64,000 nucleotides of DNA from an uncultured Thermococci archaeon (GTDB lineage Archaea > CAYQAE01 > CAYVLA01), in assembly GCA_964549615.1 (NCBI GenBank), contig CAZJVP010000020.1:218305-282304 (forward strand), read 5' to 3'. Positions 11,498 to 54,320 of this stretch are shown piece by piece. The notes below the pieces were generated by a model. The model worked only from the letters and a program-made list of their open reading frames with translations, had not been told where the DNA came from and ran no database searches. How positions within the stretch are numbered: position 1 is the stretch's first letter; every line of letters begins with the position of its first letter. Made by a program: the position numbers and the translations under genes.

Positions 11498-12942
11498 CAG
11501 ACTGCCACCGTACACCCGTCGTCGAACTCCGGCGGGAGCATGTAGCCCCAAGCCGAAGGACTCTCCTTCCTGCCGTCCACCTTCACCTCCGGCCGGGATC
11601 CGCCCTTCCAAGAAACCTCGAGGTAGAAGCGCTTCCCCGCATAGGTCAGGGGAGAAACCGTCCTCAGAGCGCCCATGCCTTCCAGCCGCATCGGGGCGAT
11701 CAAGAGCCCTTCCGCACGGGGGCTCAGCCCGAGCACTCCCTCCACGAGGAGGGTGAAGATCGACCCGTAGTTGCCGATCTCAGGAGACCAGTCCTTGTTC
11801 GACGTTCCGTCGGGATAGATGTTGTTGTGGATCGTTCCCTCCTTCAGCTCATAGTCCACGATCGCTTTAAACATGCGCGTTGCCTTCCTGGTGTAGCCAG
11901 AACGCAGCCGCGCCACCGCTGCGTGTGCGCCCAGCGTCAGCCAGATGTCCCCGTCGGTGACGGTGTGGCCGTAGTTCATCCGCCGCGCCGCATTGCGGGG
12001 AAGGTAGTTGGTAAGCACAGGATAGGGCTCCTCTATTTCGGGATGCTCGTCCACGTAGGACCAGATCCTTGCTGACTGTTCAGGCGTGGCGACTTTCCAG
12101 AGAATGGAGAAGTAGTTCGCCGTGGACTCGAAGTAGGCTTCGCCGTAGATTCGACGGCCCGCGCCGTCGTTCCCGTGAAGGAAGTGGCCCTTTGGGTCCC
12201 ACCAGAAGCCTCCCTCCCGGGCGTCGCGGCGGAACTGCGACCTGATCTCCTCGACGATCTCCCGGTATCGGTCTCGCATCCTCTTCCTCTTGAGCAGGGC
12301 CTCGACCTCCGAAAGAAGGTCGAGACACTGGACCATGCAGACGTTGTTGTTCGAGTTATCGGCATGCCAATTTGTATTCTCGGTCCAGTCGCCCTCGATC
12401 CCCGACTCGATGAGCGAAGGATTGTAGGCCGGCCTCAGGCTCTCGAGTATGAAGTCCGTGCTACGCTCGACCGCCTTGAGCTTCTCGGTTCTGAACCACT
12501 TCCTGTCCCGGGTGTAGAGGAAGAACTCCAAGATCATCTTCGCCCAGCATATGATGTTGTCTAGGCAGTAGTCCTCCCCGTGCACGCCTCCGTATGTGCG
12601 GTACTCCACGCGCTTCTCCCCCTGCCTGTACCCGATCCTTCCATCGTCGTCGATGGGAACGCAGTGAGGAAGGAGGCCTGTCCCGGGTTCCGTATGGGAA
12701 AGTCCCTCGTCGAGGGTCTTCCTCATGATGTCGTGCACGGCAGCTCCCACCAGCGGTGTCATGTCATGTATGCCACACCAGGTGTTCCAGCCCCATATGC
12801 CGACCGGCTTCTTGCCCCTGGCCTCATCCACGTGAACCTCGCAGAAACGCCCTCGGTGGGTCAGGTGCTTGAGGAAGACGCTTTCGACCCTGCTCGGTAT
12901 GTGGTCGAGCCACTTGACATCGGAGTCGAGGAAGGCTGACAT
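11488..12942 (-). CDS. Six-hairpin (alpha/alpha)6 glycosidase-like protein
   Basis: GDWTE, NYGHTVTDGDIW, EGVLGL, LLIAP and a C-terminal beta domain resembling GH65/78/94-like enzymes. Confidence 0.65.
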   Translation of the reverse strand: MSAFLDSDVKWLDHIPSRVESVFLKHLTHRGRFCEVHVDEARGKKPVGIWGWNTWCGIHDMTPLVGAAVHDIMRKTLDEGLSHTEPGTGLLPHCVPIDDDGRIGYRQGEKRVEYRTYGGVHGEDYCLDNIICWAKMILEFFLYTRDRKWFRTEKLKAVERSTDFILESLRPAYNPSLIESGIEGDWTENTNWHADNSNNNVCMVQCLDLLSEVEALLKRKRMRDRYREIVEEIRSQFRRDAREGGFWWDPKGHFLHGNDGAGRRIYGEAYFESTANYFSILWKVATPEQSARIWSYVDEHPEIEEPYPVLTNYLPRNAARRMNYGHTVTDGDIWLTLGAHAAVARLRSGYTRKATRMFKAIVDYELKEGTIHNNIYPDGTSNKDWSPEIGNYGSIFTLLVEGVLGLSPRAEGLLIAPMRLEGMGALRTVSPLTYAGKRFYLEVSWKGGSRPEVKVDGRKESPSAWGYMLPPEFDDGCTVAVCYR

Positions 12943-49416: not shown

Positions 49417-50445
49417 TCATAGACCTCCAACGAAATTCAAGTATAACAAACCGGCAGCCATGGCCCAGAGTACAGCAAGCAACGCATAGCTTCCGACGGT
49501 TTTCCATCCTATTATCCGCGAAACCCCCAACATCGATGGGATTGAAGACATCGGAGCTCCCAACATGAACGCCAAGGCAGCGCTGGGTGACATCCCGGCA
49601 CTCAAGAGCGCCTTGACGAAGAAGACCTCCACGAGAGTTGGCGTGTACAGGGGGACGCCGATCGCGGCTGCTATGAAGATGCCCCGCACCCCGGTCAGGT
49701 ATGTCCCCACAAGATCCCTCGGCATATATGCGTCGATGAAGCTCACGGCCGCGACGCCAAGCAAGAGATACGGCAAAACCATCCTGACAAGCGCGTATGC
49801 CTCTTTCAGCGAATTCACAGACCTCCCCCAGAAGTCCATCTTGACCACTTCCTCTGCTTTTGCTGCGGAGATGCCGGCAAATCTCTCCTCAACGGCTCTA
49901 CCCCAGGCTGTCTTGGCGACAAGGAAACCAATCAGGATCGCGCCGAAGAAACTGAAACCAAAGCGGGACACAGCCATCAGTGGCGAGATAAGCTCCGAGG
50001 TGAACAGGATTGCGAGGAAGTTGGCAGCCGGAGCCATCAACAGGAAGGTTAATGCTGGCCCGATGCCGGCCCCCGTCGCCATTATGCCCCCGAATACAGG
50101 TATCATCGCACACGAGCAGACAGTCAGAACCGGGGCGAACAAGGCGGCCAGGATGTATGACCTTGCGCTCTTGCTCGAAAGGGAATTCCGCATCCTCTCT
50201 CGCGGTACGAATGCCTCTACCACACCGCCAAGCATGAAGGCGAAAAGAAATGCTCCCCATGCTCTAGAGAGATAACCCGCGAGGTAAACAAATGGGACCA
50301 GGACGGGATGATATGAGCTGAGGTCTCCGTACTCGTAAACCGGAACCACCGGGTGGCCCGTGACCCTAGCATACGCCATCGTAAACAGGCCAAAGAAAAG
50401 GATAGCCCAAGCCGCGGCGGCCACAATTTTACTTCTGCGCTGCAT
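49417..50445 (-). CDS. ArsP/DUF318 permease
   Basis: VCSCAMIP, GPALTFLLMAP, GVPLY, ALAFMLGAP. Confidence 0.9.
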   Translation of the reverse strand: MQRRSKIVAAAAWAILFFGLFTMAYARVTGHPVVPVYEYGDLSSYHPVLVPFVYLAGYLSRAWGAFLFAFMLGGVVEAFVPRERMRNSLSSKSARSYILAALFAPVLTVCSCAMIPVFGGIMATGAGIGPALTFLLMAPAANFLAILFTSELISPLMAVSRFGFSFFGAILIGFLVAKTAWGRAVEERFAGISAAKAEEVVKMDFWGRSVNSLKEAYALVRMVLPYLLLGVAAVSFIDAYMPRDLVGTYLTGVRGIFIAAAIGVPLYTPTLVEVFFVKALLSAGMSPSAALAFMLGAPMSSIPSMLGVSRIIGWKTVGSYALLAVLWAMAAGLLYLNFVGGL

Positions 50446-50997: not shown

Positions 50998-51830
50998 GTA
51001 GTTCCGCTACGTGGCCACACTTACCATCCGTTCCTCTCTGCCACCGACATTCCCAGAAATGCTCATCAAAGGAAGCCCCTTCCCATCCCGCGGCTTCAGA
51101 AAGTAACGGTGACGTTCCAGAACAGGCACACGCTGATGTCACAATGGGCGGCGCACAGCGTTGCGAAAGAGGCATGATAGCGTCGAGACCACGGGCCTGT
51201 GCGCCTGACAAGTTGTGCACAGCCGGCTGGGAAGAGCAGAAAAGTTGGGAAGGCCCGGAAGGCTGGGAAGGATCAGAGGGATCAGAGGGATCAGAGGGAT
51301 GATGGATGGGAGCGGAAGGACAGATACGGGGAAAGGTACAAACGGTACAGGGAGGCTGAAGCTCTAAGCAAGGGTCTGCACAGGATCTATGACAGGCTCA
51401 AAGAAGCTCTGGAGACCGATCCTCCTCCACAAGCACAAAAGAGGGATAGGCTTGCAAGGTATGGTAGGTATGGTAGGAGGGCTCTGCAGCACTGGCTCAG
51501 GAGGGAGTACAGGTCTGCCAAGGTTAGGCAGTTTGTCGACAAGCTCAGCGCTGCTTGTCCCTACCTGTTTACCGCTGTCAGGCATCCTGGTGTGGAGTTG
51601 ACCAATAATCGTTGGGAGCGGGCTTTGAGGGCGCTTGTGGTGCAGAGAAAGATCATAGGGACTCTTAGGAATGGGAAGGGTGTGAGGATGTATGAGAGGA
51701 TTCCAAGCCTTCTTGCCGCATGGGAGCAGAGAGGCCTAGACTCATCCCACACATTATCCGAAGCTCTAACCCAGAGCTGGAAGGAGACCTCACACGACCA
51801 GACCAACCAACGCGCGAGCTAAATACGTAC
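50998..51830 (+). mobile_element. IS66-family (ISBst12-like) remnant with C-terminal transposase fragment (~51350..51822)
   Basis: LFTAVRHPGVELTNNRWERALRALVVQRKI is the IS66 TNNxxER motif; candidate ends GTAG.. (50998, weak) and ..GCTAAATACGTAC (51830); no TSD seen. Confidence 0.75.
51270..51300 (+). repeat. Tandem repeat (GGATCAGAG)x3.4 within a degenerate 9-bp periodic tract starting near 51225
   Basis: Read directly from the sequence. Confidence 0.9.
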
Positions 51831-51870
51831 GCTGGACCAAATTATAAGTTCTCGGCCTCCAAACTGCATC

Positions 51871-52028
51871 TGCTTAGTCACCTCTCTGTTTGGTGTGACC
51901 AAACGAATCCGAACACTCAGAGGTGATTAAGCATCCATCAAGCTTCAAGGCCTGTCAAACGAAAGTCAGGCCCTGAGAACAGAATTTTAGCCAACCATGG
52001 AACAGGACTAAAATATCCCATAGGTTGG
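51871..52028 (+). ncRNA. Candidate structured non-coding RNA of unknown class
   Basis: 15-bp + 7-bp stem with G.U pairs, GAAA-capped hairpin, possible 3' pseudoknot, TTATAA at 51842. Confidence 0.45.
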
Positions 52029-54320
52029 TCAGATGCCACCGGGGCGAAGCAGCCGACGCAATAGGATCGCTGCCGCAAGCGCCGCCACGGAGGTCTCCGG
52101 AATCGCTACTCTGATCTGGGCCTGCTTCTTTGCCTCGCAGTTGCCCGCGGCGTCGACCGACCAGTAAGCGTAGAGGTGGTCGCCCTCCAGGGCCCGGAAA
52201 CCCGTCGGGGAGTACTCGACCGGGTCCTGCAAGTCGATCGAGTAGTATGTCTTGTAGAGCCCGGATCCGGGCTCAGGGTCCTCCGCGAGGAGGTAAATGG
52301 TCACCGGCGGCAGGTACGGATCCGGCCTGGGCGGGGGCGATATCGCCGTCGTGGGCGGCCGGGTGTCCACCTTAATGACGGCGGTCTGCGGTATCTCGAC
52401 GTTCCCCGCGTAGTCCTCCGACCAGAAGGTGTAGACGTGGCTGCCTTCGGGCGCGACGAAGCGGAAGACTCGCCTTGTATCGTTCTGCACGGGCCCGTTG
52501 TCGATCTGGTAGTAGGTGATCTTCACGCCGCTCGCGTTTCCCCAAGGCACGTACGGATCCGCGGCGTGGAACTCTATGATCGTCACGTTCGTATGCCACT
52601 CGTGGCTGGATTTGGGCTTGATGACCGTATAGGGCGCAACGTTCGGGTCCTCGGTGGGAGGGGCGTAGGATTCGATGATCTCGAAGTACCTTAGCTCCCA
52701 CACGGTGTAGCCGCTGTTGCACTTGGCGCCTATCCTGCAGATGTAGAGCCCGTCGGGGAAGGACAGATTCGTGCCGATCGTGCTGAATGCCCAGTACTGG
52801 TCCGAGGGCCAGGCGGTGCTGCGGGTGGCTTGGACGGATTCCTGTTTGATGAAGGCGGGCGGCGGCGTGGGCCACTCCCATGTGACGGTACAGAGCGTGT
52901 CGGAGAATGGCTCATTGGCATTCATGCGGCTCCTCAAGTAGGTCGGATCGAGCTCGATGTTGACCCATATCGTGTCGCCGGCCTTGAAGACGCTTCGGCC
53001 GCTCGACAGCTTCTCTCGAGAGGGGTAAGCCTCGATCGGGTCGTCCACGTAGAAAGATTTCTGGGCTGCCGTCGCGGGGAACATGCCCGGGGTTGGCCTT
53101 GCCTTGATGGAGTAGGCCCCGAAGAACTCCATCGACCCGTTGCCCGTGGGGTCGATCAGCTCGACGGGTATGATCGTCGAGTACGTGTAGGTGTAGCTGC
53201 TCCCCGGGACGACCGGGTACCCAGTGATGTTCCAGCTCACGTTCCCTATGAAACCCAGGAAGCCGGTGGTACACCACAGCTGGAGGGTGAGGTTGTAGAC
53301 GTCCTGGTACGGATTCCCCGGCAGGCCGGTGTTGATGACGGCGGTTAGCGTGGCTCGCAAGCTGCTCGGATCGAACCACTGGCCGTAGGTGGGTCGGACG
53401 TCGAGTTCGACGTTGATCCACCGTGCCGAAAGCACCCTGAACCGGGCGTATCCCACGAAGTAGCCTAAGGTGGCCCTGACGACGTAGTCGTGCGTGGAGT
53501 TGAATGGGAAGGCCGTAGCATTCGCCGCGACGATGTCGGTCGCCGTCCAACCGCGTCCCTGGACGAAGCGGATCGGCGTCGCGTGCGCCATGATGACGTT
53601 GCCGGCCGGACCAATCCACTCGACCGTTGCGTGGGAAGCTCCGGTCTCGTTTCCCGGGGGGTTTACGGTCAGTGTGGCGTTGAGAAGGGTCGAGGCCTCC
53701 ACGCCGTCAAGGTAGAAAGGCGATGTCCTGTTCATCTGGTCCAGTACCTGGACGAAGAGTTCGGATGTCGGAACATGGAAGAACATCCATTGGACGTTAG
53801 GATTTCCTGCGGGGCTCGTCCAGCTCGAGCCTAGGCCCGGCCCCGTCTCGTTTATCCTCACCTGGTACACGCCTGGAACCCCCTGCGGGTCGAATGTGGT
53901 GACGAAGAGGTGGTAGGAGTAGGCGCCCGAGGTCTGCCGGTACTCGGCCGGAACGGTGACGGACCAGTTGGGCTGCGATCCTGGGAAGAGATTTCCAGAC
54001 GCGTTGAATCCGCTCGAGGCGCTGGAGTTGTGGTAGACGATGAAAGTGACGGTGAAATTGCCGGCCGAAGCGTCGGTCCGGGCAACGTAGGCTAGGTTGC
54101 ATTTCGAGAACCTGTAGGTCAAGTTAAGCATGTTCCAGCCGGTGTTGTTGTACTGGTTCCAACCCTCGACCGGCATTCCGTCCTCCTTTAGCCAGGCATA
54201 CTCCACCAACTGGTAGCTGGTGGGCGGGGGCACCTGCGGGGATATCTGGGGAAGCTGGGCGAGGATGGCTACCGCGACGGATGCCGTGGCGAACGCTCCG
54301 CAGAGCCTTCGGGACATCAT
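52029..54320 (-). CDS. Cell-surface glycoprotein, paralog of 13039: shared N-domain, OmpL47-like Ig repeats, IPET C-terminal anchor
   Basis: Signal peptide; WLKEDG..LNLTYRFSK; twice SG...TYY.ID..EG.H...WS.D.AGN.E; GGAGGTGA RBS. Confidence 0.85.
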   Translation of the reverse strand: MMSRRLCGAFATASVAVAILAQLPQISPQVPPPTSYQLVEYAWLKEDGMPVEGWNQYNNTGWNMLNLTYRFSKCNLAYVARTDASAGNFTVTFIVYHNSSASSGFNASGNLFPGSQPNWSVTVPAEYRQTSGAYSYHLFVTTFDPQGVPGVYQVRINETGPGLGSSWTSPAGNPNVQWMFFHVPTSELFVQVLDQMNRTSPFYLDGVEASTLLNATLTVNPPGNETGASHATVEWIGPAGNVIMAHATPIRFVQGRGWTATDIVAANATAFPFNSTHDYVVRATLGYFVGYARFRVLSARWINVELDVRPTYGQWFDPSSLRATLTAVINTGLPGNPYQDVYNLTLQLWCTTGFLGFIGNVSWNITGYPVVPGSSYTYTYSTIIPVELIDPTGNGSMEFFGAYSIKARPTPGMFPATAAQKSFYVDDPIEAYPSREKLSSGRSVFKAGDTIWVNIELDPTYLRSRMNANEPFSDTLCTVTWEWPTPPPAFIKQESVQATRSTAWPSDQYWAFSTIGTNLSFPDGLYICRIGAKCNSGYTVWELRYFEIIESYAPPTEDPNVAPYTVIKPKSSHEWHTNVTIIEFHAADPYVPWGNASGVKITYYQIDNGPVQNDTRRVFRFVAPEGSHVYTFWSEDYAGNVEIPQTAVIKVDTRPPTTAISPPPRPDPYLPPVTIYLLAEDPEPGSGLYKTYYSIDLQDPVEYSPTGFRALEGDHLYAYWSVDAAGNCEAKKQAQIRVAIPETSVAALAAAILLRRLLRPGGI

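Follow-up and report, generated by a model that had tools for sequence, protein, structure and literature searches.

Fold-back inhibition and the RNA-IN/RNA-OUT pair are known from the insertion sequences (ISs) IS10 and IS50, in which entering transcripts pair end-proximal sequence with the start region. The IS200 tnpA gene has a comparable arrangement in its leader. An inverted repeat of the left end forms a stem-loop that, in the account given by Ellis et al. (2015; PMC4513863), sequesters the Shine-Dalgarno (SD) sequence and lowers both 30S binding and transposition. In ISPpu9 of Pseudomonas putida, transposase expression is described as being under the control of secondary structure in the 5' untranslated region and of two small RNAs (PMC8450116). 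The element considered here lies at positions 51831 to 52009 of a 64,000-nucleotide stretch (the window) of contig CAZJVP010000020.1, which belongs to a Hadarchaeota metagenome-assembled genome. This 179-bp segment is almost certainly a dead left-end fragment of an IS of the ISH6 family, with its sense on the minus strand. Its main hairpin (hairpin 1, 51871 to 51933) would occlude the SD of the transposase gene in intact copies, and the combined statement of identity and occlusion is given a probability of about 0.62. The ISH6 family is a member of the Mutator/IS256 superfamily (p-MULT 2 of the prokaryotic Mutator-like transposases), and its type element is ISH6 of Halobacterium salinarum.

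Copies of the segment were collected by scanning metagenome contigs with a pattern made from a shared block of about 45 nucleotides, which returned eight loci. One of these (L015) was left out as an independent copy because it is identical to the window, and two others (L014 and L017) are a single locus that holds only the terminal 46 nucleotides or so. The remaining five copies share 90.0% (L011), 92.8% (L012), 91.7% (L018), 75.6% (L013), and 78.3% (L016) identity with the window over 51831 to 52009. In all five, homology is lost directly after GGACT (...GGAACAGGACT, ending at 52009), and the copies also diverge from each other at this point. DNA contigs of other samples, from four runs, show the same edge, with the match ending at 52011 or 52012 and unrelated sequence following.

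All five copies contain an open reading frame (ORF) on the opposite strand that starts with MQFGG (MLFGG in L013). Three of the copies have this frame in full, encoding 433 amino acids from the ATG. Against NCBIfam model NF041731 (transpos_ISH6), the L018 protein reaches 316.5 bits, above the equivalog cut-off of 240, and the transposase of the copies also matches Pfam UPF0236 and Transposase_mut. A tblastn search against plasmids returned 27 records, all of them haloarchaeal, at 29–33% identity and mostly annotated as ISH6 family transposase. The protein thus differs from its haloarchaeal relatives at about 30% identity, and its host here is a member of the Hadarchaeota.

Complete copies are 1459–1461 bp in length and have a single ORF and imperfect inverted repeats, which agrees with the roughly 1.46-kb plan of ISH6. 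The copy in L011 spans positions 147–1607, and that in L018 spans 242–1700. Their ends read GGTGCTGTTCTGTCATTGGCTAA and AGTCCTGTTCCGTGGTTGGCTAA, and the right ends of L011, L018, and L017 are GGTGCTGTTCTGTCATTGGCTAA in inverted orientation. The segment homologous to the window sits within these inverted repeats in the intact copies, with the transposase gene on the opposite strand. The putative 8-bp target duplication is perfect in L017 (AAAGCTTT) and matches at 6 of 8 positions in L011 and L018. The window has a single flank, AAAATATC (52010 to 52017), representing one copy of the expected duplication. The target motif published for ISH6 is the AT-rich AANATNTT (Guerillot et al. 2014, PMC3942029); the window flank and the flanks of the other copies appear to fit this motif as given there.

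The L017 element (12132–12706) is an internal-deletion derivative of 575 bp, composed of 533 bp of the right end and 46 bp of the left end within its perfect duplication. As the deletion may have occurred after insertion, this derivative is not evidence that hairpin 1 can be dispensed with in cis.

The window copy retains the inverted repeat, leader, SD, start codon, and 13 homologous codons. The core of the left terminal inverted repeat (sense AGTCCTGTTCCATGGTTGGCTAA) occupies 51987 to 52009 on the minus strand, and the conserved terminal block reaches inward to about 51964. This terminus of about 41–49 nucleotides recurs alone in another contig of the same genome (C51) and in L014/L017. The leader is 140 nucleotides long, as opposed to 82–89 nucleotides in haloarchaeal ISH6 elements. 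The start codon lies at 51869–51867, and the truncated transposase frame (51831 to 51869, minus strand) translates as MQFGGRELIIWSSVRI*. The homologues read MQFGGRE[LF]IDLVQLDQEAR; in the relic, a 1-nucleotide deletion in AAAT-TATAAG breaks the frame after MQFGGRELI. Because these nine in-frame residues are all that remain, the ISH6 membership of the relic rests on DNA homology. Homology to the ISH6 copies stops at 51831, where a fragment of an IS66-family element starts. The relic was inserted at AAAATATC, just downstream of a gene of 763 codons, and later lost all but 13 transposase codons at the junction with the IS66-family fragment.

The segment lies in a gap between two convergent reading frames that a sequence-only reading had proposed to encode a new structured RNA. 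All four features described there (a TATA box, a double stem, a GNRA hairpin, and interleaved pairings of a possible pseudoknot) were found in the sequence where it had placed them, and the low-GC, folded character of the stretch is real. The GC fraction falls to 0.475 at 51800–51999, against 0.52–0.67 nearby. On the plus strand, 51860–52030 folds with −61.1 kcal/mol (z-score, z, of −5.73) and on the minus strand with −64.3 kcal/mol (z −5.25); in both cases, none of 200 shuffled sequences folded as well. The view that it matches no known RNA family also stands. Rfam gave no match at the gathering score across the 64-kb window, and a permissive scan of 51750–52100 gave only two matches at chance level (E-values 2.6 and 4.4). 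The best sub-threshold scores were 13.7 and 13.6 bits, with cut-offs of 38 and 60. The proposal that the RNA is associated with a mobile element was borne out, as the stretch forms the left terminus of an element of the ISH6 family. A plus-strand small RNA of about 160 nucleotides or a riboswitch is disfavored, since the gene of the element lies on the minus strand.

Hairpin 1 is composed of a 15-bp outer stem (arms 51871–51885 and 51919–51933, 93% complementary, with 33 nucleotides between the arms) and, in the RNAfold prediction, an inner stem. Read on the minus strand, its 3' arm contains the SD and ends one nucleotide before the ATG. The hairpin is present in all six hadarchaeal copies, the window included. 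The SD of the transposase gene, GAGGUGA (51878 to 51884), is eight nucleotides upstream of the ATG and is complementary to the 3' end of the organism's 16S rRNA, which ends in ..GGAUCACCUCCU. The 5' arm of hairpin 1 contains AUCACCUC (51920 to 51927) on the sense strand. This sequence is identical over eight nucleotides to the 16S rRNA 3' tail as read in L035. Since the 5' arm matches the 16S tail, hairpin 1 is an internal mimic of the duplex between the SD and the anti-SD. As an incidental observation, the 16S rRNA gene of this genome is split over two contig ends (C46:41–678 and C78:1–672), with interruptions between the matches on C78 that may point to insertions or to breaks in the assembly.

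In intact copies, the sense strand would carry, in order, the terminal inverted repeat, a weak hairpin (hairpin 2), and a strong hairpin that pairs AUCACCUC with GAGGUGA and closes one nucleotide before the AUG. The stem would hide the ribosome-binding site of the transposase gene. Translation of the transposase would then be rare or, on transcripts reading in from outside, absent. In the window copy, the transposase gene is gone, and the structure is a fossil because of this loss. Occlusion of the SD in intact copies, of the kind described for IS200 and IS10, is the probable function of the stem. That it would lower translation is suggested by analogy with IS200, an unrelated element. The copies themselves document which element this is, on which strand its gene lies, and where the stem over the SD is placed and how it is conserved.

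The likeness to IS200 consists of an SD placed within a leader stem, and of DNA that, in the same account of IS200, can also give rise to a structured antisense RNA (art200). The two differ in that IS200 has an unrelated transposase (HUH rather than DDE) and a bacterial host using Hfq, and the occlusion in ISH6-type elements is a prediction from sequence. ISPpu9 is likewise a bacterial IS and belongs to another family.

Hairpin 1 has counterparts in more distant members of the family. The transposase of G034, a genome of another archaeal lineage and one of three among 401 genomes (G000 included) with a match, is 37% identical. In its leader, GGCAUACCUC and GAGGUGAUGCC (GAGGU(G)AUGCC), together with ACCAA and the UUGGU of the start codon, enclose both the SD and the start (z −5.3). 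A search of the class of G034, represented by two genomes, added no further elements. Nine haloarchaeal ISH6 leaders (L024–L031 and L034) were aligned. Their stem, formed by GGGNCGCCUCU and AGAGGUGNCCC, contains GAGGUG and ends at the AUG, like the stem described here. The hadarchaeal stem is the longer of the two, with 15 bp plus an inner stem, and the window copy differs further in being a 179-bp relic. In the haloarchaeal alignment, 93.7% of 95 cells are paired, as opposed to 39.8–55.4% with the partner slid; the shuffle control for this alignment ignores relatedness. Double changes are present in 2 of 11 pairs, so this covariation comes from few events, and the G.U pair lies on the sense strand. 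Judged from the hadarchaeal, G034, and haloarchaeal stems, pairing appears to be kept in three lineages while the letters of the outer stem differ. On the sense strand, hairpin 1 has z of −3.7 to −5.4 in the four copies folded.

The haloarchaeal leaders also resemble IS10 and IS50. In all nine leaders, a pairing is predicted between GGUCGUGU, at the very left end, and GCACGCC in codons 1–3 (alignment columns 1–8 and 92–98); it would act on read-through transcripts only. It differs from the IS10 and IS50 case in resting on invariant columns, and for this reason it is a prediction without support from covariation. A small CCYG...CRGG hairpin is also present in the haloarchaeal leaders and overlaps the base of the SD stem, and the two folds are possibly alternative.

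Several observations weigh against occlusion of the SD as the function of hairpin 1. A start-proximal SD hairpin is present in 9 of 10 haloarchaeal ISH6-family leaders; the tenth, L033, lacks one (z −0.33 and +0.91). An eleventh haloarchaeal locus (L032) was dropped, having no recognizable left end or start. The shuffle control and the few covariation events in the haloarchaeal alignment, with the limits given above, belong to this side as well. No pair of the outer stem has changed on both sides in a compensatory way among the six hadarchaeal copies, and 84 of 90 cells are paired on each strand. Window-type copies fold better in the antisense direction, at −31.4 and −32.3 kcal/mol versus −27.3 and −24.8 kcal/mol. 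For hairpin 1 of the window alone, the z values are −5.84 on the plus strand (−31.4 kcal/mol) and −4.80 on the minus strand (−27.3 kcal/mol). The G.U pairs of the inner stem also favor the antisense strand. In the outer stem, equal pairing on either strand removes the value that the sequence-only reading had placed on G.U pairs as evidence for the plus strand. The SD function of GAGGUGA is predicted from its complementarity to 16S rRNA. The five sequencing runs listed are all DNA.

These points bear on a different explanation, modeled on RNA-OUT of IS10 and art200 of IS200. Here, a plus-strand antisense RNA would start from a TATA-like promoter in the first transposase codons, run outward to the TTTT at 51985–51988, and pair with the SD and start of the transposase mRNA. 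This is unlikely, though it stays a live rival because the runs are DNA only, no double change was found, the antisense fold is the better one, and L033 lacks the hairpin. In all six copies, the motif AAATCTAT[AT]AAT (AAATTATAAG in the window) precedes the base of hairpin 1 by about 25 nucleotides, and a run of four Ts follows hairpin 2. Window-type copies fold more stably on the plus strand, which also carries the G.U pairs of the inner stem. In Halobacterium salinarum, 10 antisense RNAs over the 5' ends of transposase genes are reported in PMC6523106, and IS200, as presented in PMC4513863, has an SD stem and an antisense RNA together.

The conservation of the TATA-like letters is uninformative as to a promoter, because they are fixed by the codons for E-[LF]-I-D-L, and this counts against the antisense RNA. 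The TATA box proposed in the sequence-only reading at 51838–51849, CCAAATTATAAG, is the complement of what remains of transposase codons 7–10 (E-L-I-(D)-L) with the 1-nucleotide deletion. Further against an antisense RNA, the outer stems of L013 and L016 contain two C.A mismatches when read as plus strand, and in the haloarchaeal ISH6 stem the G.U pair is found on the sense strand. The first 30 or so coding bases of the haloarchaeal elements show no TATA-like antisense run when inspected by eye, without a scan. The restriction of the listed runs to DNA applies to this explanation also.

Both mechanisms could be combined. In that case, the ISH6-type end in archaea would be a two-strand module, with an SD-occluding stem that mimics 16S rRNA and an RNA-OUT-like antisense RNA that starts in the first codons and ends at the T-run of the inverted repeat. 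The relic, which keeps the promoter-like motif, the stem-loops, and the T-run without the target gene, could then be made as an orphan plus-strand small RNA of about 120 nucleotides acting in trans on the leaders of intact copies. This is a speculative and decidedly unlikely scenario. No intact copy of the element was found in this assembly, and its only other copy, on contig C86, lacks the leader.

The palindromes could also work at the DNA level, as subterminal sites for the transposase or a host factor, or could be functionless sequence conserved in a young IS family. The six hadarchaeal copies are 76–93% identical and fold alike on both strands, as either version would have it; because of this identity, the conservation of the stem among them is largely inherited. 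Set against this, three lineages that differ in the letters of the outer stem always have the SD inside the stem and the start codon at its end, and the 5' arm copies the 16S tail. A role in DNA only, or none, is therefore very unlikely.

Occlusion of the SD concerns hairpin 1, and the other two hairpins of the stretch are less well conserved. Hairpin 2, the GNRA hairpin of the sequence-only reading, lies between the inverted repeat and hairpin 1 (51945 to 51976, arms 51945–51954 and 51967–51976, minus strand). It was found in all six copies with its pairing register shifted between them. Its presence was upheld in the window (z −2.7), and it is weaker than had been claimed, with z between −0.95 and −1.6 across the five homologues.

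Hairpin 3 (51990 to 52029) uses the inverted repeat as its 5' arm and host flank as its 3' arm, with RNAfold pairing 51990–52000 to 52018–52029. Hairpin 3 does not belong to the element. The 3' partners of hairpin 3 and of the TTTTAG/CTAAAA pairing both come from DNA beyond the conserved element, where the flank is unrelated in all five homologous copies. The supposed pseudoknot is thus not supported, as the CTAAAA partner and the hairpin 3 arm are non-homologous host flank and are not conserved. Within the window, 10 of 11 bases are paired between the inverted repeat and the host flank, which begins at the stop codon of the 763-codon gene, and the hairpin encloses a run of four Ts. This pairing could be due to chance or could be a secondary terminator.

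The last possibility leads to an explanation in which the host has taken over the relic, with the 763-aa mRNA having its 3' end or terminator in hairpin 3 and the T-rich run, or with the segment acting as an independent host small RNA or riboswitch. The placement of hairpin 3 at the stop codon, its 10 of 11 paired bases between IS end and flank, and the enclosed T run speak for it, as does the presence of the relic at single-copy depth in run X1. No relic is found at the orthologous place, however. The related genome G001 has only another degraded copy, beside a methyltransferase gene, and the G001 gene closest to the 763-aa gene (58% identity) is followed, eight nucleotides past its stop, by a different neighbor. 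A riboswitch-like conserved core and a downstream plus-strand gene are also lacking. Such a takeover has only a slim chance of being correct.

The convergent gene on this side (52029 to 54320, minus strand) encodes a predicted surface protein of 763 amino acids. Its stop codon (52029–52031) is 19 nucleotides from the end of the IS. The only Pfam match of the protein is a weak one to Big_13, below the cut-off. The protein has many N-x-S/T sites and is hydrophobic at its N-terminus and in its C-terminal tail. Its family is multi-copy, and the related genomes G001, G002, and G003 have 6, 6, and 1 matches, respectively.

On the other side, the relic is abutted and truncated by a C-terminal fragment of an IS66-family transposase (51199 to 51830, plus strand; frame 51199–51822). 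The fragment matches Pfam PF03050 with an E-value of 1.6e-9 over profile positions 172–282 of 284. It scores 72 bits against NF033517, below the cut-off of 180, and is for this reason regarded as a fragment. The genome contains six further IS66 matches, whose DNA homology to the window ends between 51830 (C54) and 51848 (C21), before the hairpins are reached. The possibility that the folded stretch is the right end of an IS66 element is ruled out by this loss of homology. In run X1, contig depth is 131–595 over 51228–51854 versus 37–40 in both flanks, the IS66 fragment being repeated. The assembly of this run breaks at 51294 and 51801.

An ISH6-like transposase gene is broken twice at ..AAATACGTAC[G/A] followed by CTGGA, once in the window and once on C86. 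The C86 copy is the only other copy of the transposase gene in the genome; it is 88% identical and lacks the first 29 residues. The junction of GCTAAATACGTAC[G/A] and CTGGA (51818–51835 in the window and about 27840–27870 on C86) cuts codon 13 in opposite orientation in the window, and codon 29 in the same orientation on C86. It looks like an IS66-family right end landed twice in ISH6 copies next to CTGGA. Short tandem repeats lie beside IS relics at three places, namely in the window (51240–51300, with the 9-nucleotide unit GGGATCAGA), on C86, and on C51. Farther away, 49417–50445 (minus strand) encodes an ArsP_1-type permease (Pfam E-value 5.1e-42).

No second full copy of the segment was found in the genome itself, where queries of 208 and 182 nucleotides returned only the segment and a piece of 41–44 nucleotides on C51. 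The latter (about 108374–108472; L002 1501–1543) is a solo piece of the left inverted repeat, in an intergenic position beside short tandem repeats. A match on C30 (E-value 0.19) was judged to be due to chance. Among 61 related genomes (G000 included), DNA matches were present only in G000 itself and in G001, which holds a partial degraded copy at 73% identity; the phylum is represented by five genomes in the collection. An empty target site was not found among these, the closest G001 homologue of the 763-aa gene having a different neighbor. A plus-strand small protein (NRILAN-GTGL) was also considered for the window, G001, and C51, where changes are mostly in third positions. It has no start codon, and tblastn recovered no family for it within the genome, where the best non-self match has an E-value of 0.083. 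The peptide reading was dropped because the shared block of about 45 nucleotides is the terminal inverted repeat.

The candidate for a new RNA class therefore falls away, as a mobile element of a known kind, lying on the other strand, accounts for the structure. For annotators, this is a caution that relics of IS ends can look like structured small RNAs. In haloarchaea, in a lineage of Hadarchaeota, and in a third archaeal lineage, ISH6-family elements seem to have retained a hairpin covering the SD and start codon of the transposase gene. The exact copy of eight nucleotides of the 16S tail in the arm is present in the window relic and its metagenome relatives. A literature search, which did not cover supplementary tables, found no description of an SD-occluding stem in ISH6-type elements. 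The hairpin would represent an easily testable translational control of transposition in archaea, where control of this type is little documented.

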